NCBI GenBank assembly: GCA_009692535.1
Contig: SHYZ01000002.1
Location: 8,444 to 72,443, forward strand
DNA length: 64,000 bases
Source: Myxococcales bacterium
Lineage (GTDB): Bacteria > Myxococcota_A > Polyangia > Haliangiales > SHYZ01
Direction of reading: 5' to 3'
The first letter of the stretch is position 1; every line of letters begins with the position of its first letter. The position numbers and the translations under genes are program-made. The notes beneath the pieces were generated by a model that had not been told where the DNA came from, did no database searches, and saw only the letters and a program-made list of their open reading frames with translations. This document shows, in pieces, positions 3,567-46,853 of the stretch.

Positions 3567-5888
3567 ATGCGACTGTTCGGCCCGATGCTGCTGTGTCTTG
3601 TCGTCGGCGTCGCCGTCGGAGCCGGATTCACCAAACTCCTTTCGCTGACGCCGGTGGCGCTGCAGCGGTCGAGCGGCAGTGATCGTGTCGCGCACGCGGA
3701 GCAGAAGAACCTCTCCGCAGCGGCTGCCGATGTCCCCTCCCTCCCCTCCCTCCCCGCGCCGGTCGAGGCAGAGCGAGTCGTTCTTCCGTCGGTCGTCAGC
3801 GCACCGAGCAGTGTGATCGAGGACGCGACGCGTGCGGCGCGCACGGCGCCGCTGCCATCGCGCGTCCGCGGCGATCGCAAGGTGAACGGACGCGTCGCGC
3901 GCTCGGACGGCAGCGGTGTCTCAGGTGTCGTCGTGCGAGCGCGTCTGCTGGACACTCGCGGCCGTGAACCGGGTCCGCCGCGCCTCGGCCTCGCGGCGCC
4001 GCTGTCCGACTCGCTCGATCGTGCCATCCAGCGCGCCGTCGAGTCGTGGTACGAGCAGGCGGGTCGCCGGGTCGAGACGACCACCGATGGCGACGGCCGC
4101 TACGAGTTGGCCGAGCTGCCGGCCGGACGCTGGTCGCTCGAACCGTGGAGCGAGGGTTTTGCGATCGAAGTGCCGGGCGGCGGTTCGACCGAAGTCGAAC
4201 CCGATGCGACCCTCGACTTCGTCGCAACACCCGTCGAGCGCGTGTCGATCACCGTGTTGCTTCCGAATGGCGACCCACCCGCGCGCGCCGCGATCCAACT
4301 GCGCAGCGGCCAAAGCGGCGGCGCCGGCCTGACGCTGTTGTGGACCGACGCGACGCGTGAGATCGCGGTGAAGCCGGGCGGTTACGAGGCGCGTGCCACG
4401 CTCGGCGATCCCGAGCAGGGGCCGGCATGGAGCGAGGTGCTCGCCTCCGATTGGACGACGATCGAGGTTGAGGAGGGCGTCATTCCCGCGCGCCTGCGTC
4501 TGACGTTGAAGGGCGCGCCCGGCTTGCGTGGACGCATCGTCTTCCCGACCGGCGCGAAGCGCGGGAACGTGATGGTGAGGATCGCGCCCGCGCCGGCGAA
4601 CACGCCGCCCGATCTCGTCGCGCTCACCAACGACCACTCCGCGCCGACTTCATGGGCGAGCCAAGGCACCTACCTGTTCCGCGACCTCGCACCCGGGTGC
4701 TACGTCGTCGGCGTCGCCCGCAATTGGGGCGAGCGGATCGTCGCGCACGCCGTCGTCGACGTGAAGGACGCGATGGTCGTGCAGGACCTCGCGATCCCGG
4801 CGGCGGATCCGTCGACCTCGCTGGTCGTCAAGGTGCTCGACGCCGACGGCGCCTTGGTCGAGGAGTGCGATTTCCATCTGGAGGTTGGCAACGCCGAAGG
4901 CCGTTCGACTGGCACCACCGCCTCCGCCGAACGCAAGGCGAATGGCAACTGGTGGGTTTCGCTCGCGGTGGTGAACGACGTTGACCTTGCCACGCCGTGG
5001 CCCGACGGTACGACGGTCAAGCTGACGGTGTCGACCTCTCGATTCGGATCGAAGTCGGTCGACATCGCGCCTGGCACGCGGGCGCTGCAGGTGCGTTTCG
5101 GCGCGCCCGCGAAGCTCCTGGCGACGATCGAAGGCTATGCCGGGAGCGGCTACGAAGGACGGTTGCAGCTCACGCTCGATCCGGTCGGCAGCGACGACGG
5201 CGCTTTCGCGCCACGCTCGCTCAACGGTCGCCAGGGCGTCGCTGCCGACGGCACGCAGACGTTCGGCCCGATCGAGGCCGGTGCATGGCGCCTCAAGCTG
5301 CAACTGCAGCAGAAGCAGGCCTGGCAGCGCCGGACGCTGGCGACGGTCGAGGTCGCGCTGGTGCCCGGCGACAACCGCGCCGCCATCGCGATCCCCACCA
5401 TCTCCGACCTCGTCGTGTCGGCGCCCGGCCGCTCGGGCACGATCCAGCTCCAGAACGTCGTGACCAAGGAGACCGAGCACGAATCGCTCGACGCGGAGGG
5501 CAGCGTCACGTTCGCGGGACTCCCCGCCGGCGACTACACGCTGCAGACGTTCGGCGGCGTCTTCGAGTTGATGCGCGTGCGCGTGCCCTGCGCCGGCGTG
5601 CTCCGCTTCGAACCGATGACGGTGAATGCCGCGCTCGTGACCATCACCGATCGCGCGGGCACGCTGGAGGCGATCGGCTTCCGTGACGGCGATCTGATCG
5701 TCGGCATCGACGGCAACGAGTTCGAGTCGAGCATGCAGATGCAGATCATCCTGATGCAGTCGATCGCGAAGGCGAAAGTCACCTTCACCCTCCTGCGCGG
5801 TAACCAACGAGTTGAGCTCGACGTGAATCCGAAGGATTTGATGAACCCGCAGAAACAAGGTGGATCGATCGAACCGACCAGCCGCTGA
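3567..5888 (+). CDS. Membrane-anchored carboxypeptidase-regulatory-like (Ig/transthyretin-like) repeat protein with C-terminal PDZ domain
   Basis: ATG 3567 gives N-terminal TM MRLFGPMLLCLVVGVAVGAGF. Motifs GRVARSDGSGVSGVVVRA and TDGDGRYELAELPAGRW (CarboxypepD_reg type). C-terminal PDZ motif GFRDGDLIVGIDGNEF. Confidence 0.7.
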   Translation: MRLFGPMLLCLVVGVAVGAGFTKLLSLTPVALQRSSGSDRVAHAEQKNLSAAAADVPSLPSLPAPVEAERVVLPSVVSAPSSVIEDATRAARTAPLPSRVRGDRKVNGRVARSDGSGVSGVVVRARLLDTRGREPGPPRLGLAAPLSDSLDRAIQRAVESWYEQAGRRVETTTDGDGRYELAELPAGRWSLEPWSEGFAIEVPGGGSTEVEPDATLDFVATPVERVSITVLLPNGDPPARAAIQLRSGQSGGAGLTLLWTDATREIAVKPGGYEARATLGDPEQGPAWSEVLASDWTTIEVEEGVIPARLRLTLKGAPGLRGRIVFPTGAKRGNVMVRIAPAPANTPPDLVALTNDHSAPTSWASQGTYLFRDLAPGCYVVGVARNWGERIVAHAVVDVKDAMVVQDLAIPAADPSTSLVVKVLDADGALVEECDFHLEVGNAEGRSTGTTASAERKANGNWWVSLAVVNDVDLATPWPDGTTVKLTVSTSRFGSKSVDIAPGTRALQVRFGAPAKLLATIEGYAGSGYEGRLQLTLDPVGSDDGAFAPRSLNGRQGVAADGTQTFGPIEAGAWRLKLQLQQKQAWQRRTLATVEVALVPGDNRAAIAIPTISDLVVSAPGRSGTIQLQNVVTKETEHESLDAEGSVTFAGLPAGDYTLQTFGGVFELMRVRVPCAGVLRFEPMTVNAALVTITDRAGTLEAIGFRDGDLIVGIDGNEFESSMQMQIILMQSIAKAKVTFTLLRGNQRVELDVNPKDLMNPQKQGGSIEPTSR

Positions 5889-5951: not shown

Positions 5952-8324
5952 ATGTCTCGACCGTTGATCGCGATGGCCGCCGGCTTGGTGGTCGGCGCTG
6001 TCGCTGGCGCCGGCGCGATGGCGTTCCTGGGTGGCGGCGGCAAGTCGCTGCTCGCGGCGCAGGCCAAGACTCAAGCGGCCGATCGCGACGGGGAGTCGGC
6101 GACACCGAGCACCGCGCCGGCCCTGGCGCTGGTCGATCCATCGCTGGCGCCCGAACGCGTCGAGCGTGCCGCCGGCGCGACCGCGATCCCGGGCGAGCTC
6201 TCCGAGGGCGTTGGCGAGCTGATGCGCCGCGCGCCAGGCAAGCCGGTCGCCGCCGGCGATCGGGCGCTCAAGGGGCGCGTCGTCGATGTGCGCGGCAACC
6301 CGCTGGCCGGCGTTGTCATCCGCGCGGTGCGCCACGGCGATCCGGTGCCGCTGCTGCCTGAAGTGTCCGCGGTCGGACGCGGCGCACCGCCGCCGCCTTC
6401 GCTCGAGGAGTCGGTCCGAACGGCGATCGCGGCGTGGTACGAGACCGGCGGTGAGTTCCGCGAGGTCATGACCGGCGGCGACGGCCGCTACGAGCTCGCC
6501 GAGCTGCGTGATGGGCAATACACCGCGTCGGCGTGGAAGAGCGGCTGGGTATTCGACTCCGAGCACGGTCGCGGCCAAGTCAGCGTCCGGCCCGACGCGA
6601 AGCTCGACTGGAACGGGAAGGCGGTGCGGTCGCAGCAAGTCGTCGTCGAGCTGCCCGATGGCAGCGGCGCGCCATGCGCGAACGTCGAGTACCGCAAGCA
6701 GGGCCACGACGACTCCGCAGGCACGCAGGGCTGGTTGGCGAACCAGCCGACGATCGTGCTCGAGCCAGGTTCATGGGAGCTGCGAGCGACGCTCGGTCAT
6801 CCGCAGTCGGGACCGGCGTGGCCCGACTACCTGGTGTCGCCGTGGGTGAAAGTCGCGGAAAGCAGCGGGGGCGAGTCGGCGGCCGTGACCGTGCGCATGG
6901 TCGGAAAAGCCGGCGTGCGCGGACGCGTGACGCTGTCGACTGGCAAATCGGCGCCGCAGGCGCTGGTCAAGGTGAAGAAACTCGAATCGGGGGAGAGCGC
7001 CGACCCGGAGTCGATGCGCGACCGCGACGACGACGGCGGCACGATCCAAAGCGATTGGATCGGCAACGGCGAATACACGTTCGTTGACTTGAAGCCGGGC
7101 CGCTACCTGCTGACGGCCCAGCGCCACTGGAATGCCCCGATCCTGATCCACGCGCAGGTCGAAGTCGACGACAAGATGGTGCAGCACGACCTCGTGATGC
7201 CCGAACTCGATCGCGCCACCTGCCTCGAGGTCACGGTCCGCGCGCCCGACGGGACGCTGGTGCCCGAGATCAACTTCCAGTGGCGCTTCGACGGCGGCGA
7301 CAACAACTACAACCACGGGGATTGCACCTCCGATCGGCGTGACGTCGGCGTGTGGTGGTTGCCGCTCGAAGCGGCGAAGCAGGGCGAGTTCGATCCGCTC
7401 GGGGCGTGGCCGTCGGGATCGCACCTCTACCTCATCGCGGATCACGCGGACTACGGCTCGACCGCGGCCGAGGTGTTCGCGGCGACCCGCAGCCTCGAAG
7501 TGAAGTTCGGCCCGCCGGCGACCCTGCGGGTGACGGTGCTGGGGATGACCGGCGCGAACTTCGCCGGCACCATCAACCTCGGGCTCAATCGCGTCGGCAA
7601 CGGCATCGATTCCGCGGGCCATGGCGCGGGCGGCCAACCCAACAAGGAGGAGGGGGTCGCGCGGCTTGGTCCGGTCGAGGCCGGGCGCTGGAAGCTCACC
7701 ATGTGGATGAGCTCGAACAAGTCGCAGCGCTGGAACCAGTTCGAGGCGGCGTCGGCGGAGGTCACGCTGACGCCGGGCGAGAACGAGGCGACGCTGTCGA
7801 TCCCGACGCTCTACTCGATGGTGCTGCGGCTGCCCGAAGGTGTCGAAGGCCAGATCAACCTCGAGCAAACGGCCAAGACGCAAAACCGACGCTGGCTCCA
7901 CGGCCAGATCGAGAAGGACGGCGCGCAGAACAAGGCCGTGTTCGAGGACATCCCGGCTGGCGAGTATCGCGCCACGCTCCAGAACGGCCCGAAGCCTGGC
8001 GTGATGACGATCCATGTGCCGGGCAACGGCGGCGTGGTCGACTGGGCGCCGCAGCCGATCAATGCGGTGCTGGTCACGTTCAACGAGAACTCGGCAGCGG
8101 TCGCCGAGCTTGGCTTCGCCGATGGCGACATCATCACGGCGATCGATGGCAAGGAGGTCGCGAGCTCGGTCGATTTGCAGGTGATGTGGACCTTGGCGCG
8201 TGCGCAGCGTGAGATCGAGCTCACCATCCAGCGCGGCGGTGAAGCCGTGACGCTCAAGGTCGACGGCAAGAAGCTGATGGCGCAGGGCCGCAGCGGCGCG
8301 ATGTACGAGCCGACGACGCGATGA
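5952..8324 (+). CDS. Paralogue of 3567-5888: membrane-anchored CarboxypepD_reg-like repeat protein with C-terminal PDZ domain
   Basis: ATG 5952 follows GAGGAG. TM LIAMAAGLVVGAVAGAGAMAF. Motifs GRVVDVRGNPLAGVVIRA and GGDGRYELAELRDGQY. PDZ motif GFADGDIITAIDGKEV. Collinear with the upstream gene over its full length. Confidence 0.7.
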   Translation: MSRPLIAMAAGLVVGAVAGAGAMAFLGGGGKSLLAAQAKTQAADRDGESATPSTAPALALVDPSLAPERVERAAGATAIPGELSEGVGELMRRAPGKPVAAGDRALKGRVVDVRGNPLAGVVIRAVRHGDPVPLLPEVSAVGRGAPPPPSLEESVRTAIAAWYETGGEFREVMTGGDGRYELAELRDGQYTASAWKSGWVFDSEHGRGQVSVRPDAKLDWNGKAVRSQQVVVELPDGSGAPCANVEYRKQGHDDSAGTQGWLANQPTIVLEPGSWELRATLGHPQSGPAWPDYLVSPWVKVAESSGGESAAVTVRMVGKAGVRGRVTLSTGKSAPQALVKVKKLESGESADPESMRDRDDDGGTIQSDWIGNGEYTFVDLKPGRYLLTAQRHWNAPILIHAQVEVDDKMVQHDLVMPELDRATCLEVTVRAPDGTLVPEINFQWRFDGGDNNYNHGDCTSDRRDVGVWWLPLEAAKQGEFDPLGAWPSGSHLYLIADHADYGSTAAEVFAATRSLEVKFGPPATLRVTVLGMTGANFAGTINLGLNRVGNGIDSAGHGAGGQPNKEEGVARLGPVEAGRWKLTMWMSSNKSQRWNQFEAASAEVTLTPGENEATLSIPTLYSMVLRLPEGVEGQINLEQTAKTQNRRWLHGQIEKDGAQNKAVFEDIPAGEYRATLQNGPKPGVMTIHVPGNGGVVDWAPQPINAVLVTFNENSAAVAELGFADGDIITAIDGKEVASSVDLQVMWTLARAQREIELTIQRGGEAVTLKVDGKKLMAQGRSGAMYEPTTR

Positions 8325-10096: not shown

Positions 10097-11635
10097 TCAG
10101 GCGTCGAGCACCATCACCGCGTTCGAGACCGTGAATCCCGCAGGGACGCCGGGATCGACGACCAGCGTCTGCGTCACGAGCTGCACGCCGATCAGGCTCG
10201 GCGGGATGGTCTCGGCGAGGTCGAAGGCGCCGGTGCCCGCACCGCTTCCGGTCAGGAACAGCGAGAGCACGTCCGGCAACAGCGGCGCGACATGGAGCGA
10301 GCCGCCCGACTTCCCCATCGGCAGATCGGCGAAGTCGGTGCCGAAGACCAGCAGCGCGAGCGACCCGCCGAGCCCGTCACGCAGCGACAGCGTGATGTCC
10401 TCGCCCGGCATCGGCAGTCCATCAAGCGTCAGCGTCGGCACGAAGCCGCCGCTTCCCGGGCAGCCACCGTTCCGTGTTCGATCGAGCGTCGCGACGAAAA
10501 CGCCGTACCCCTTCGCGCCATCGGTGAACGTCGCGCGGAACGCCAACTGATGGCCATCGAAGCCGCGGTGCGAGAAGGTGAAGTGCGAGACCGTCCGACC
10601 GCCGAGTGTGGTGGCGGAGGTCGCGACCGTGTGGATCGTGCCGTCGAGCAGCAGGTAGAGCCCCTCGGTCGTCCCGCTCCATGCCGTGAACGCGAGCGCA
10701 CCGTCGGACCAGCCGAAGACACCGTTCACGGTGTCGAACGTGCCACCGCCCGGCGCCGGATCCCCATCCATCACCCACGCCGTGATCGGGCCGGCGCCGT
10801 TTGCGTGGAGCGGAGCGCTGAAGATTCCCGCCTTGGTCTTGCTCCAGCCGAAGAAGGCGACGTCGTTGGCGTCGTGGTCGGTCGCGCCGAGGTAGGTGAA
10901 CTTTTCGCTGGTGCCCGGCACCACGCTGCTGCCGTTGGCGACCAGCTCGACGGTGCCGGAAGTGATGTCGATGGTGTAGCAGCCGTAGCTGGTGCCGCCG
11001 GTGACGTTGGTGCGGGCAGGAACGCTGACGAAGTTCCCGTCGAGCGCCGGCATCTCGATGAAGTCGGAGTGGATGTAGGTGCCGCCGCCCGGAAGCGATT
11101 GGCCGCGGACCAGCAACAAGGTCTCGCTGCCGCCGTTCAGCGGCATCACGTTCGGATAGGTCCCGCGCAAGAACGCGACCCCGCTCGCGCCTGCCGACAG
11201 CGGCAGTCCGCCGAGCCCAACGTACTGGACCGACGTTGTCGTCGATGCGGTGTAGATCCCGTCGTAGCCGCTCCACCCATGGCCGGGGAATTCATCGCCG
11301 GCCGGGAAGTAGGCCGCGCCGGCGACGAGCGCGGGGTTCCAGAGCCAGGCGATCAGCTTGCCGGAAGTGTGAGGCGAGGCGTCACCGACGCTCACGAGCG
11401 AGACCAGTGGGCCCTGCCCGTTCGACGGCCCGATCACGATGGTGTCGACACCGCGGACCGTGTCGATCCCGGTCAGGGCGACTTGGCCAGCGTCGACGAC
11501 CGGATACTGGCCGTTCGGCACGACGACGGTCGTGTCTTCCGCGATTCGGACGAGCGACAGATGCTGCGCGGGAGCGACCGAAGCAAGGACGCCATTCACG
11601 ACGAGCGCGGCGCAGGCAGAGTGAAGGCTGAACAT
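10097..11635 (-). CDS. Secreted repeat protein of unknown function (NxxGxxAF-like repeats)
   Basis: Internal ATG 11635 gives signal peptide MFSLHSACAALVVNGVLASVAPAQ. Repeated motifs NDVAFFGW, GALAFTAW and HQLAFRATFTDG..GVFVA. The track's upstream extension is Arg-rich. Confidence 0.5.
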   Translation of the reverse strand: MFSLHSACAALVVNGVLASVAPAQHLSLVRIAEDTTVVVPNGQYPVVDAGQVALTGIDTVRGVDTIVIGPSNGQGPLVSLVSVGDASPHTSGKLIAWLWNPALVAGAAYFPAGDEFPGHGWSGYDGIYTASTTTSVQYVGLGGLPLSAGASGVAFLRGTYPNVMPLNGGSETLLLVRGQSLPGGGTYIHSDFIEMPALDGNFVSVPARTNVTGGTSYGCYTIDITSGTVELVANGSSVVPGTSEKFTYLGATDHDANDVAFFGWSKTKAGIFSAPLHANGAGPITAWVMDGDPAPGGGTFDTVNGVFGWSDGALAFTAWSGTTEGLYLLLDGTIHTVATSATTLGGRTVSHFTFSHRGFDGHQLAFRATFTDGAKGYGVFVATLDRTRNGGCPGSGGFVPTLTLDGLPMPGEDITLSLRDGLGGSLALLVFGTDFADLPMGKSGGSLHVAPLLPDVLSLFLTGSGAGTGAFDLAETIPPSLIGVQLVTQTLVVDPGVPAGFTVSNAVMVLDA

Positions 11636-38088: not shown

Positions 38089-38103
38089 GGCAGCTCAGCG
38101 CTG
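38080..38103. terminator. 10-bp stem / 4-nt loop hairpin shared by convergent genes, with both stop codons inside the stem
   Basis: CAGCGCTGAG-GCAG-CTCAGCGCTG contains TGA (38086-38088, plus gene) and TCA (38095-38097, minus-gene stop). No U-tract, so this is not a canonical intrinsic terminator. Confidence 0.3.
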
Positions 38104-39225
38104 ATCGCCGGTGCCGGGTCGCGGTGAAACGGGAGAGGACTCGGCCAGCAGCAGGTCGATGGCGCGGTCGATGGCATGGTCGGTGGCGAGGGCGGCCGTG
38201 CCGTCGGGTTGAGTTGGTTCTCTCGGTTCGGTCGGTCCTGGCAGTCCGAGCCATTTTCCGCGGATGACGCCCTGCGCGTCGATCAGGTAGAGCGTCGGCA
38301 GGCCGGCCACGTCCCATTGGCGGAACAGCGCTCCTTCGGATGGGTCGCCATCGAGGAGGCTCGGCCACGCCATCGGGCGAGCCGTGAAGAGGGCGTCGAG
38401 CGCCGCGCCGGGCGGATCGCAATTCACGCCGAGGCGGGCAAACGGCCGTTCAGCAAGACGCGCCGCCTGCGCGCGTGCGGCTGGCAGCGCCGACAGCCAC
38501 TCCTCGCACCAGAACGCGAAGAACTCGACCAGCACCACCTTGCCGCGGAAGTCGGCGAGCGCGAGCGGGGTGCCCGTGCGATCGCGTCCCGCGAGCGGCG
38601 GCGCGACGCAACCGATGCGCAGATGTCGCAGCGCGAATTGGGCCGCGCGAGCGGGCTCGTCCCAGTGGGCGCCGAGCTGACTTTGCAGCGCGCCGAACTC
38701 CTTGGCGAATGCATCGAGCCGGTCGATCAGCGCGACGACCACGGCTTCGTCGAGGGGCGCGGACCAGTCGAGCTGGCGCTCGCGATCGAGGATGCGCCAG
38801 CGGTAGGCGGCCTTGAGCGGCTGCGAATGCGTTGCGGCGTCGATGCGCACGAGCAGCGCGTCGGCTTTCGCGGCCAGCCAAGGCGGCGCCTGCATGTAGA
38901 GCAGTGGCGCCGCGAGTCGCTCGTCGTCGGCGAAACGGGTGGCCAGCGGCTCAATCGCGGTTTCCCACAACGCGATCGTCGCCGGCGCCTCGACCGACCC
39001 CGCGAGGTCCGCCGCGAACAGCAGCGCGTCGAGCTCGCCGGGCTGGCCACGTTGCGTCCGCGCGAGTTCGAGCGCCGCGCGGCTTGCTTCCGCGACTTCC
39101 ACCGCGTCGAGCCACCGCCCTTTCTGCTGCGCCGCCGCGATCCGTGCGTCGACCTGCTGCTTCAGCGCTTCGAATGCATCGCCCGGCGCACCCTGCAGCA
39201 GCACCGCCACCACCCAACTTCGCAT
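38095..39225 (-). CDS. TlpA-like thioredoxin-fold protein with degenerate C-E-E-W motif and N-terminal helical domain
   Basis: ATG 39225 follows GAAGGAG. Motifs FRGKVVLVEFFAFWCEEW and GLPTLYLIDAQGVIRGKWLG (cis-Pro region). Same architecture as the upstream gene. Confidence 0.7.
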   Translation of the reverse strand: MRSWVVAVLLQGAPGDAFEALKQQVDARIAAAQQKGRWLDAVEVAEASRAALELARTQRGQPGELDALLFAADLAGSVEAPATIALWETAIEPLATRFADDERLAAPLLYMQAPPWLAAKADALLVRIDAATHSQPLKAAYRWRILDRERQLDWSAPLDEAVVVALIDRLDAFAKEFGALQSQLGAHWDEPARAAQFALRHLRIGCVAPPLAGRDRTGTPLALADFRGKVVLVEFFAFWCEEWLSALPAARAQAARLAERPFARLGVNCDPPGAALDALFTARPMAWPSLLDGDPSEGALFRQWDVAGLPTLYLIDAQGVIRGKWLGLPGPTEPREPTQPDGTAALATDHAIDRAIDLLLAESSPVSPRPGTGDQR

Positions 39226-39318
39226 CGCCGCGCTCCTTCGGGTCCGCCGCAGAACGAAACCGGGCCGGCGCGTTTTGCACACCGGCCCGGAGGATTGCCG
39301 ATCAGCGCGGGCGCTTGG

Positions 39319-40482
39319 CTACTCCGCGCCCGCCTTGCCCTTCAGCTTGGCACCCGCGGGATTCTTCGCCTCGGCGACGAGCGTCTCGATCTCGCGATCG
39401 AGCGCCTCGTCACCCGGGCTGCCCAACCACTTCTGCCGGATCTTGCCGGTGTGGTCGACCAGGTAGAGCGTCGGCCAACCGCGCACGTTCCAGGCACGCG
39501 AAATGGGTCCTTGCGTGCCCTCCTCGCCGTTCCAGAAGCTGCGCCAGGTGATCTGCTCTTCCTTGAACTTCGGCTTCATCGCCGTGAGATCGGAATCGCT
39601 GTTCACACCGATCAGCGCGAATGGCTCATCCTTCAGCTTGTTCACGAGCGACCGCTCGTGCGGGAACATGGCCCGGCAAGGGCCTCACCAGTACCCCCAG
39701 AAGTCGATCAGCACCACCTTGCCGCGGTAGTCGGAGAGCTTGAACTTCACGCCGTCCAAGTCGGGCGCCTCGATCTCCGGCGCCATCCCGCCGACCTTCA
39801 AGTTGACCAGCGCGTAGCTGGTGTTTTTGGTCCACTCGGCGTAGGTCCCGCCCTGCACGCTGTCGACCATGCCGAACTGCTGGCCGAACGTGGCGAGGTC
39901 GGCGAGGAGCTTTGTCTCCAGCTCCGGCGTGAGCGGCGTGTCGCCCGCAGCATCGGCGCGTTGCGACAGCGACAGGTACGCGGCCGCCGCCTTCACCGCG
40001 ACGTTGTTCGAACGGATGAGCTTCGTCGCGTATCCCGCCGCCTCGGCCTTCGCCTTGGCCGGCGAGGGGAAATTCATCACGAAGGTCGCCATGCGATCGT
40101 CGTCGATGAAGTCGGTGAACAGCTTCGAGGCGCAATCGCGCCACGCTTGCAGCGACTTCTCGCTGGTCGGTTTCACGTACGGGTCCGACGTCAGCGCGAG
40201 GATCTGGCTCAGCGCGTCGAACTCGGCCGGCTCGCCGGCGCTCACGTCGTAGATCTTCTGGCAGCGATCGATGAAAACCTGCAGCTCGGACTCGCTCATC
40301 GACGGTGCCTGCACGCCCGCGGGCAGGTCTTTCTTCGCCTTCGCCGAATTGCTGCGCAGCGTCGCGAAATAGTCGCTCTTCACTGCACTGACCGAATCGT
40401 CGTTGACCGAGTCGTCCTCCCGCGCCTGCAGCGGTGGGCTCGCCGCGACGGCAAGCCAAGCCAGGAACAGCCAGTGTTTCAT
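39319..40482 (-). CDS. TlpA/ResA-like thiol:disulfide oxidoreductase, candidate selenoprotein (U-G-P-C; UGA at 39685-39687)
   Basis: ATG 40482 follows AAAGGAG. Signal peptide MKHWLFLAWLAVAASPPLQA. The frame continues through the TGA: YRGKVVLIDFWGYW-U-GPCRAMFP...IGVNSD...GWPTLYLVDHTGKIRQKWLG. The two track ORFs are in the same frame. Confidence 0.6.
39643..39684 (-). promoter_or_regulatory. Candidate bacterial SECIS: two hairpins immediately 3' of the UGA
   Basis: mRNA reads GGCCC-UUGCC-GGGCC (39684-39670), then CACGAGC-GGUC-GCUCGUG (39660-39643). The apical loop GU lies about 36-37 nt from the U of UGA. Confidence 0.45.
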
Positions 40483-40569
40483 CCGTGCTCCTTTCTTCGA
40501 TGGGGTCGGGCGGGGAAGCCTACGGTTCCGCTCACCAGAGGACGAGTCGTCGCGGGTTACGCTCCGGCG

Positions 40570-45503: not shown

Positions 45504-45608
45504 GAGCGGGCACTCCGCGGCGACGATCGGTTGGCTTGCGATCGTACGGAGCGAGGTCACCGGAAGAGCGGTCGAGTTTCGCCGATGGCGAGCGACCGCT
45601 CCGGCCGA

Positions 45609-46739
45609 TCAGTTCGCTGGCTGCTGCTGCGTGACGCAGTGGACCATGCCGCCGAAGCGGTAGAGGTTGCGGCAGTCGATGCCGACGACAACGCGCTCCT
45701 CGAACAGATCTTGCAGCAGCGCGAGCGCGACCGCGTCGTTCGCGTCGGCGTAGGTCGGCACCAGGACGACCGTGTTGCCGACGTAGAAATTCACGTACGA
45801 ACCCTTGTAGCCGAGGTTGAGGCCCCAGGTGGTCACGACGTTCTGGTTGGTCAGCGGGAGCTCGAGTCGCCGATATTCGTGCCCGTCGACATCGTCTGCG
45901 GCGGCGAGCGTCGCGACGTCGGCCTCCGACAGCCCCCAATACCCGAGGTCGGCGGCACTCATGGTGACCAGCGTGCGCGGGTCAGCGAAGCGGGCGAAAC
46001 CGTCGACGTGCATGTCGGTGATGTCGGCTTTCCCGCCAGGCGCGCCATCGAGCCAGATCACCTTCGTCGCACCGATGTTGCGAGCGAGGCGTTGCTCGAG
46101 CTCCTCCTCCGAAAGGCCAGGGTTTCGCTTCGCATCGAGGATCGAGCTGCGCGTGGCGATCAGCGTGCCCCGTCCGTCGATCTCGATCGCGCCGCCCTCG
46201 AGGACCGTCTTCGCGCGATCGAGCCGCTCGATTCCAAGGGCGTCCGCGATCGCGGCAGGCACCGAGTCGTCGAGCGCGGACGGCGCGTCGTCGCCCCAAC
46301 CGTCGAAGCCCCAGTCGAGGATCTTCAGCGCATTGCCCTCGCCCTCGGCGTTGTCGCGCACGAAGAGCGGTCCATTGTCGCGGACCCAGCAGTCGTTGGT
46401 GCGTCGCAGCAGGAAGTCGACGGCGTCGAGCTCGATGCCGTTTGAGGTCAGCAGTCCAACGATCCGCGCCTGCGCCGCGGCATCCCAGGCGACGATGTGG
46501 ACCCGCTCGCTGTTGACCAGTTCGCGCGTCATCTCGATCCAGGTCGACTCGATCCGATCGCGGTAGGTGCGGCCGTAGGTGTGCTGGTGGGGCCACTGCA
46601 GCCACGTGCCTTCGTGCGGCGCGGACTCGTCCGGCATCTGCCACGCTGAACCGCGAAACGACACAGGCAGGAGCAGAGCGGCGGCGAGGCAGGCGGAGAT
46701 GCGTATGGTGGGCTCTCGGTACGTTGCAGGACGTGTCAT
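45609..46739 (-). CDS. Agmatine deiminase / peptidyl-arginine deiminase (PAD_porph) family protein
   Basis: Motifs EGTWLQWPH, CWVRDNGPLFV, DWGFDGWG and DMHVDGFARF. C-terminal GGMVHCVTQQQP carries the catalytic Cys. ATG 46739 is followed by a signal-like segment. Confidence 0.8.
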   Translation of the reverse strand: MTRPATYREPTIRISACLAAALLLPVSFRGSAWQMPDESAPHEGTWLQWPHQHTYGRTYRDRIESTWIEMTRELVNSERVHIVAWDAAAQARIVGLLTSNGIELDAVDFLLRRTNDCWVRDNGPLFVRDNAEGEGNALKILDWGFDGWGDDAPSALDDSVPAAIADALGIERLDRAKTVLEGGAIEIDGRGTLIATRSSILDAKRNPGLSEEELEQRLARNIGATKVIWLDGAPGGKADITDMHVDGFARFADPRTLVTMSAADLGYWGLSEADVATLAAADDVDGHEYRRLELPLTNQNVVTTWGLNLGYKGSYVNFYVGNTVVLVPTYADANDAVALALLQDLFEERVVVGIDCRNLYRFGGMVHCVTQQQPAN

Positions 46740-46853
46740 GGAATAGCCGTTCGGCGTAATCCTGCTGGCGCAGTCGATTCGTGCAGTTGGCGATTCGGGC
46801 CCAATACGGAACCGGCCGTCCCGCCGCATCGCCGAGCCGCCGCGAGCGGTGCG

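Follow-up and report, generated by a model that had tools for sequence, protein, structure and literature searches.

The 64,000-nucleotide stretch of contig SHYZ01000002.1 (assembly GCA_009692535.1) analyzed here, which we call the window, carries on its minus strand, between 39319 and 40482, a reading frame that the public database annotates as 2 genes, of 265 and 116 amino acids. On the strength of its sequence and that of its relatives, we regard it as very probable that this is a single, genuine selenoprotein gene, encoding an exported two-domain thiol-disulfide oxidoreductase in which residue 266 is a selenocysteine (Sec) encoded by UGA. An earlier note, made from the letters of the window without database searches, had proposed a Sec-encoding UGA in a thioredoxin-fold motif with a selenocysteine insertion sequence (SECIS) downstream, and that central reading is supported by what we report. 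The evidence comes from the conservation of the UGA, from the pattern of substitution in the codons that follow it, and from an RNA hairpin whose nucleotides are held constant only where the UGA is present.

One reading frame across a conserved UGA

From ATG 40482-40480 to TAG 39321-39319 the frame has 388 codons and 1 internal stop, the TGA at 39687-39685, which stands in the context ...KVVLIDFWGYW-TGA-GPCRAMFPHERSLV or, more fully, ...YRGKVVLIDFWGYW-TGA-GPCRAMFPHERSLVNKLKDEPFALIGVNSD. Rereading the sequence bore out the coordinates and context given in the earlier note, which placed the UGA at the first Cys of a W-C-G-P-C motif. The 116-amino-acid open reading frame (ORF) begins, as it had said, at ATG 39669, 5 codons past the TGA and in the frame of the upstream ORF, and the AAAGGAG that it had taken as the Shine-Dalgarno sequence of ATG 40482 is found at 40494-40488. 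Its further claim, that the 2 ORFs make up a single 387-codon protein, agrees with the comparative data, in which the frame past the UGA reads [GP]PCRAM[YF]PHERSLV...ITWRSF and stays open in 65 related loci.

Those data began with a protein search in which the query was the read-through sequence with Cys substituted at the UGA, and which found 772 relatives. The 20 closest orthologous proteins (43-100% identity) are deposited at 248-275 residues and all terminate at ...DFWGYW, so gene callers stopped at the same codon in every one of them. From species-representative genomes 79 related loci were collected, mostly from metagenome-assembled genomes (MAGs) of Planctomycetota, with some from Verrucomicrobiota and one from Bacteroidales. 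Among 77 of these, the codon after FWGxW is TGA in 65, TGC or TGT in 11, and TGG in 1, and dozens of full-length FWGxW-C-x-x-C homologues carry Cys in the same column, which is the alignment that the earlier note had proposed as a check. Set against its nearest orthologue (L001), the protein shows 81% identity over the 112 codons that follow the UGA and 62% over the part preceding it, and the substitutions after the UGA are distributed over codon positions 1, 2 and 3 as 12/8/33, the mark of a frame that is translated and constrained. Purifying selection thus acts on the frame downstream of the UGA. Moreover, because TGA is kept in 65 of 77 loci and in all of the approximately 20 orthologues, it is not a lesion.

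A hairpin that goes with the UGA

For the nucleotides beyond the UGA we count the U as +1, and we aligned 60 nt from the window and the 65 TGA-bearing loci, giving 66 UGA forms. The second of 2 hairpins that the earlier note had drawn, CACGAGC-GGUC-GCUCGUG at 39660-39643, is present in the minimum free energy (MFE) fold of the window, and its description there as SECIS-like holds up well. Positions +29 to +44 read ACGAGCGGTCGCTCGT in all 66 UGA forms save for a single C-to-T change, which preserves a G-U pair. The apical loop GGUC (+35 to +38; 39653-39650 in the window) is found in 66 of 66, with its GU at +36/+37, just where the note had put it (some 36-37 nt from the U of UGA). This invariance covers the third codon positions 30, 33, 36, 39 and 42, while adjacent third positions reach a consensus of 33-60%. 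In the consensus fold of the aligned UGA forms the +29 to +44 hairpin is the sole conserved structure, with 95% of cells pairing. The seventh pair of the window's version, C28-G45, which extends the core stem, was considered as a family feature and rejected, being present in only 42 of 66 sequences, with U-A in 2 more. The core has an MFE of -7.9 kcal/mol and the 7-bp form one of -10.5 kcal/mol. The hairpin begins 25 nt downstream of the UGA, and the spacing from UGA to loop is 31 nt. The published model of bacterial SECIS (bSECIS) elements specifies a loop of 3-9 nt, a stem of 4-16 bp and a G in the first 2 loop positions (PMC13188914), together with a UGA-loop distance of 16-37 nt and an MFE of -7.5 kcal/mol or lower (2026 review, PMC13188914); the family hairpin, with its 4-nt loop GGUC, 6-7 bp stem, 31-nt spacing and energies of -7.9 to -10.5 kcal/mol, lies within every one of these limits.

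Conservation of this kind could in principle be a matter of the peptide HERSLV that the hairpin encodes, and the homologues with Cys codons are the relevant comparison. The earlier note had looked to orthologues keeping both TGA and hairpin, which are what the UGA forms are, and had also raised the state of the hairpin in Cys-codon orthologues. In all 11 Cys-codon loci of the 60-nt alignment the element is missing, as the Sec reading expects. Six further Cys-codon homologues keep HERSLV; 2 of them have the exact 16-mer, 4 have 1-2 synonymous changes, all falling on the sites that are otherwise invariant, and in 3 of the 6 the loop GGUC has become GCUC. Counted over synonymous sites, 7 of 30 are changed in these 6 Cys forms and 1 of 330 in the UGA forms (Fisher p = 1e-7), so the nucleotide constraint follows the UGA and not the peptide. 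The 6 HERSLV-keeping forms make up a graded series (L082 at ~1072-1117, L085 at ~988-1033, L081, L083, L084 and L086) that, judged from the sequences, looks like SECIS decay following Sec-to-Cys conversion. A search of metagenome contigs with the bare 16-mer points the same way: among the 121 matches listed, 84 have the 16-mer at +29 of a TGA within the family motif and none follows a Cys codon. As a mark of other selenoprotein families the 16-mer has no evident use, since 0 of the 37 nonfamily contexts among those listed matches offers a plausible coding Sec site.

The earlier note was only partly right in seeing 2 hairpins after the UGA. Both fold in the window, and the second is conserved. 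The first, GGCCC-UUGCC-GGGCC at 39684-39670 (+4 to +18), is present in the window's MFE fold and confined to the window and its close relatives, and as a candidate part of the SECIS it was rejected: 2 inner pairs hold, and 72% of cells pair over the 66 sequences, no better than shuffles. It is not a family feature because sequences with P-P-C in place of G-P-C cannot form it. A better candidate for a second structural element is a short helix directly 5′ of the hairpin (+13 to +27). The Arg codon at +13 to +15 is CGG in 56 of 60 sequences, against 17% CGG at other Arg codons of the same genes, and in 103 of 120 in a larger sample; the pairs G14-C26, G15-C25 and G16-C24 are kept in 90-93% of the 120 sequences, with 4 double changes from G-C to C-G. 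A subfamily with 2 in-frame UGAs (UxxU, described below) forms a comparable GGCC/GGCC helix, shifted in register (+15-18 with +23-26) and paired in 92-100% of sequences, and a four-fold-degenerate Ala codon within it is fixed as GCC. In the window the 2 upstream helices compete, the two-helix alternatives having energies of -22.3 kcal/mol with the first hairpin versus -16.0 kcal/mol with the 5′ helix. A small helix abutting the SECIS hairpin is a suggestive rather than a proven element, though these nucleotide patterns make it likely to be real.

Weighing selenocysteine against other fates of the UGA

Several results count against a selenoprotein. Searches of the 64-kb window and of the closest orthologues' loci turned up neither tRNA-Sec nor selA, selB or selD; ARAGORN finds no tRNA of any kind in the window, tblastn with E. 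coli SelA, SelB and SelD gives no match in the window plus 86 loci (1.15 Mb), and Pfam annotation of 20 large window ORFs reveals no Sec machinery among their products (sulfatases, CarboxypepD_reg/PDZ proteins, peptidases S41 and S9, a methyl-accepting chemotaxis protein [MCP], a hybrid histidine kinase, LpxD, an SSF transporter and an amidohydrolase). With Rfam covariance models the whole window gives no SECIS match at the gathering score, and relaxing the threshold to E up to 10 over 39560-39760 yields noise matches (TarB, sR12, 6S) and no SECIS. With respect to the E. coli fdhF SECIS, a segment that we verified in 5,419 of 5,426 genomes, the distance from UGA to loop is 13 nt greater in the family (loop at +35 to +38 versus +22 to +25), in agreement with the earlier note's remark that the spacing is longer than in fdhF. 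The fold energy of the stretch is ordinary in comparison with shuffles (z = -1.0), so folding alone proves nothing. The hairpin gives almost no covariation, because it is invariant, and the argument for a SECIS accordingly rests on synonymous-site constraint and not on compensatory change. Finally, selenium incorporation is a prediction for all family members, and the signal peptide, the cis-proline and the extracytoplasmic location are likewise only inferred from sequence.

On the other side, a tRNA-SeC gene (anticodon TCA) is found at 7249-7346 (+) of L020, a Bacteroidales MAG contig, 1.5 kb upstream of a TGA-bearing homologue; it is the only tRNA-Sec in the 1.15 Mb of family loci. Complete selA/B/C/D sets have been documented in 4 planctomycetes, and Gemmata and Isosphaera are given there as possessing the machinery (PMC4807772). 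A reassigned genetic code, with UGA as Trp or Gly, can be ruled out: of the 37 genes predicted in the window, 30 end in UGA, and the code is thus standard. A scan of the window for other in-frame TGAs with flanks rich in third-position G+C yielded only off-frame artifacts of its 69% G+C.

What, then, could the UGA be if not a Sec codon? One alternative is that it is read through as something else, by near-cognate insertion of Trp or Cys or in response to another recoding signal, and that the hairpin stimulates read-through in general. Such a view can appeal to the fact that the Sec machinery is not shown for the source genome, and to the lack of an Rfam SECIS match for the hairpin. But the recoded site is the exact position of the redox-active Cys, a hallmark of Sec/Cys pairs (PMC1794560), the loop GGUC is shared with E. 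coli fdhF and belongs to a hairpin that obeys the bSECIS rules, and a tRNA-SeC gene adjoins one of the homologues (L020), so that we consider non-Sec read-through very unlikely.

We hold an equally low opinion of the annotation as it stands, in which the UGA ends a 265-residue helical protein, the 116-codon ORF is a separate small thioredoxin-like protein or goes unexpressed, and no Sec is involved. Gene callers and NCBI do annotate the locus in this way, an ATG is available 5 codons past the UGA, and no Sec machinery is seen in the window. Against this, Pfam assigns residues 229-356 to AhpC-TSA (7e-18, 65 bits against a cut-off of 26), Redoxin (3e-16, 60 bits against 26.6) and Thioredoxin_8 (1e-14, 55 bits against 27), so that the UGA falls inside one domain. 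The annotated division would cut mid-domain (Pfam residues 230-350) and leave the 116-residue piece without the first strands and the nucleophile. Furthermore, the Met at 39669 is not conserved, the relatives having RALY, RTFY or RELY there, and 2 separate genes would leave the UGA-linked invariance of the nucleotides unexplained.

The weakest alternative, a pseudogene made by recent TGC-to-TGA nonsense mutation in an ordinary CxxC TlpA-like gene, had been kept alive by the earlier note on account of other possible lesions in the window. A single base change would suffice for it, and Cys-codon homologues exist, but it is refuted to the point of being scarcely credible: the TGA is shared by 65 of 77 loci and by orthologues with as little as 43% identity, the frame past it is unbroken, with coding-type substitution under purifying selection, the UGA-linked hairpin is conserved, and the loci are distinct MAGs from several phyla, differing at most of their synonymous sites and so not copies of one assembly.

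For a Sec-encoding UGA the mechanism would presumably be the familiar one. SelB, with GTP and Sec-tRNA(Sec), would bind the GGUC-loop hairpin at +29 to +44, and the bound complex would deliver Sec to the ribosome paused at the UGA; the short G-C helix directly 5′ may help to position the hairpin. Once matured, the protein would work as an extracytoplasmic selenol/thiol (selenenylsulfide) reductant or isomerase, an enzyme akin to TlpA or ResA, with a more reactive nucleophile.

Organization of the gene and its product

The features of the gene are collected in Table 1. The redox motif W-U-G-P-C occupies residues 265-269 and G-W-P-T residues 335-338, with Pro337 in the latter being what we take to be the cis-proline of the thioredoxin fold. 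At the other end of the protein, MKHWLFLAWLAVAASPPLQA is a probable signal peptide on sequence grounds, and residues 1-26 have a predicted local distance difference test (pLDDT) score below 50 in the AlphaFold model. The helical N-terminal domain of some 200 residues matches no Pfam family and gives no significant match to the PDB by Foldseek (best E = 0.1); it is kept in the roughly 20 orthologues and is also present, at 30% identity, in the adjacent paralogue. The terminator-like hairpin downstream, which lies 29 nt past the TAG, was identified by a consensus scan only.

Table 1. Features of the putative selenoprotein gene and its flanks (window coordinates).
Feature	Position	Strand	Details
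Predicted complete selenoprotein coding sequence	39319..40482	-	387 residues, Sec = residue 266; orthologues share the start Met
Shine-Dalgarno-like AAAGGAG	40488..40494	-	5 nt before ATG 40482; direct reading of the sequence
Probable signal peptide	40423..40482	-	residues 1-20, MKHWLFLAWLAVAASPPLQA / RED; hydrophobic core, then LQA
N-terminal all-alpha domain	39799..40392	-	residues ~31-228; 9 helices, repeat-like; AlphaFold mean pLDDT 80
Thioredoxin-fold domain, TlpA/ResA/Prx-like	39415..39798	-	residues ~229-356; contains the UGA
UGA codon 266	39685..39687	-	nucleophilic position of the W-U-G-P-C redox motif; predicted Sec
UGC codon 269	39676..39678	-	resolving Cys of U-x-x-C; a second UGA here in UxxU relatives
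Candidate short helix 5′ of the SECIS	39661..39675	-	+13..+27: C13-G27, G14-C26, G15-C25, G16-C24
Putative SECIS hairpin	39643..39660	-	core ACGAGC-GGUC-GCUCGU, +29..+44, 39659-39644; 6-bp stem
Pro337 codon, G-W-P-T	39472..39474	-	probable cis-proline loop, from sequence position
Stop codon TAG	39319..39321	-	true gene end, from sequence
Intrinsic-terminator-like hairpin	39260..39290	-	13-bp stem with 11 G-C pairs, then TTTCGTTCTG

Comparison with known selenoproteins and SECIS elements

The general kind of protein is not new. Published lists of selenoprotein families include Sec-containing TlpA/Prx-like oxidoreductases of UxxC and UxxU type, as well as a "Thiol:disulfide interchange protein", a "Thiol-disulfide isomerase-like protein" (UxxC) and a "Redoxin family protein" (UxxC) (PMC1794560, PMC9312934, PMC13188914). 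With such families already listed, the kind is known and the window gene would be an unannotated member of it. The likeness to the listed families, whose reference sequences include WP_010940744.1 and MGB1650493.1, is drawn from their descriptions and lies in the AhpC-TSA/Redoxin/Thioredoxin_8 fold and in Sec as the first residue of UxxC; in the listed families as in ours, UxxU relatives exist and Cys homologues are common. Unlike the listed proteins, that of the window has a helical N-terminal domain of ~200 residues and a predicted signal peptide, and its lineage is mainly Planctomycetota and Verrucomicrobiota, whereas the listed Sec families are from Deltaproteobacteria.

Also comparable are 2 split "thiol-disulfide isomerase-like thioredoxin" selenoprotein candidates reported from a planctomycete, P1 (Kim et al. 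2016, PMC4807772, Table S9), and marked there "SECIS: no" by bSECISearch at default settings. Again by description, these resemble the window gene in consisting of 2 adjacent ORFs split at a UGA, with Cys in the closest database match; in contrast to that "SECIS: no", the family described here has a strictly conserved hairpin within the bSECIS constraints. TlpA, ResA and DsbE (CcmG) share with the window protein the fold, the position of the W-C-x-x-C motif and an N-terminus resembling an export signal. They differ in having Cys for Sec and in lacking the additional N-terminal domain, and there are no cytochrome-maturation genes near the window gene. The best NCBIfam matches, ResA NF002854 (73 bits against a cut-off of 170) and TlpA NF047696 (53 against 230), score far below their cut-offs, so the protein is a superfamily relative and not an orthologue of either. 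Another NCBIfam entry, NF041054 ("ResA-like WAxxUGC motif-containing protein"), also describes a ResA-like thioredoxin fold with Sec, but the window protein scores 39 bits against its cut-off of 300, and the motif is FWGxW-U-[GP]-P-C instead of WAxxUGC.

As for the RNA element, the E. coli fdhF SECIS is likewise a hairpin that forms inside the gene on the 3′ side of the UGA, and its apical loop GGUC contains G23 and U24. The stem of the family is a perfect 6-7 bp and lacks the bulged U of fdhF, and its UGA, unlike that of fdhF, is outside any long lower stem, with a separate short 5′ helix possible in its place.

Implications for annotation and for SECIS diversity

What may be new here is, first, the hairpin with its strict invariance, the way it is tied to the UGA, the long UGA spacing and the possible 5′ helix and, second, how large the family is in Planctomycetota and Verrucomicrobiota, where a genome can carry several Sec paralogues and tandems occur (L016, L047 and L069). 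We have entertained the idea that the GGUC hairpin together with the 5′ G-C helix constitutes a distinct bacterial SECIS class, private to this family in Planctomycetota and Verrucomicrobiota, and think it rather unlikely; if true, the spacing rule of SelB would be looser or different in these phyla. It would also mean that a large multi-paralogue group of exported selenoproteins, diselenide forms included, is now being cut in two by annotation pipelines. The window gene and hundreds of relatives in MAGs of Planctomycetota and Verrucomicrobiota stand in the databases as a truncated "redoxin domain-containing protein" together with a small orphan ORF, and, since no NCBIfam model captures the family, the selenoproteomes of these phyla would be undercounted. 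For detection, family members can be sought simply and specifically with the exact 16-mer at +29. As an RNA signal the 16-nt hairpin is unusually clean, fixing both the codons and the peptide HERSLV, and its decay upon change of UGA to a Cys codon amounts to a natural experiment in the coevolution of SECIS and protein. An exported Sec disulfide reductase and its UxxU relatives would bear on redox chemistry outside the cytoplasm, although earlier work on selenoproteins has already established the general phenomenon.

Relatives, paralogues and neighboring sequence

The UxxU subfamily has 2 in-frame TGAs in the motif FWSEY-TGA-x-x-TGA-RAxWPHERSLV and is a candidate for diselenide formation. It was found in L051 (~10190-10235), in L075 (~5781-5826) and in 25 metagenome loci (e.g., L089, L090, L095, L110 and L152), the last being 25 of the 84 family matches in the metagenome sample, among the matches listed. 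Its members have an open, conserved frame and a single hairpin at +29 from the first UGA, so that one SECIS would have to serve 2 UGAs 9 nt apart.

The family is expanded within genomes: the MAGs PBOG01, JAZGFI01, JBGCDK01 and JANNXA01 each contribute multiple loci, and paired Sec-type copies lie within a few kb of each other in L016 (5875, 9161), L047 (1173, 1834; only ~660 nt apart) and L069 (10301, 12076). In the window, the next gene downstream (38095-39225, minus strand) is itself a paralogue that shares the two-domain layout (30% identity across 309 amino acids, E = 2e-42) and a redox motif W-C-E-E-W, with 1 Cys and without the resolving Cys; such a tandem of Sec form and 1-Cys form was not found beside the orthologues in other loci.

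Elsewhere in the window, at 45590-45611 (minus strand), GAGCGGTCGCTC occurs a second time, 8 nt after the TGA at 45609-45611; this was considered as another Sec site and rejected as probably a coincidence. The TGA in question serves as the ordinary stop codon of a complete PAD_porph-type gene (45609-46829, ...GGMVHCVTQQQPAN*), and the copy is intergenic, in the spacer ahead of an amidohydrolase gene; by chance the 12-mer would be expected about 0.03 times in the window. A locus in L127, near 4751 (+), reads GPCRAM*AHERSLV, with an extra stop between redox motif and hairpin where the relatives have Tyr or Phe; a pseudogene, an error in sequencing or a further recoded codon would each account for this.

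Lastly, NCBI labels the source MAG "Myxococcales bacterium". The closest orthologues of the gene (59-62% identity) and nearly all of its relatives are from Planctomycetota, and the gene content of the window, with its sulfatases, CarboxypepD_reg/PDZ proteins and an N_methyl prepilin-like gene, looks planctomycete-like; the taxonomic label may be wrong.

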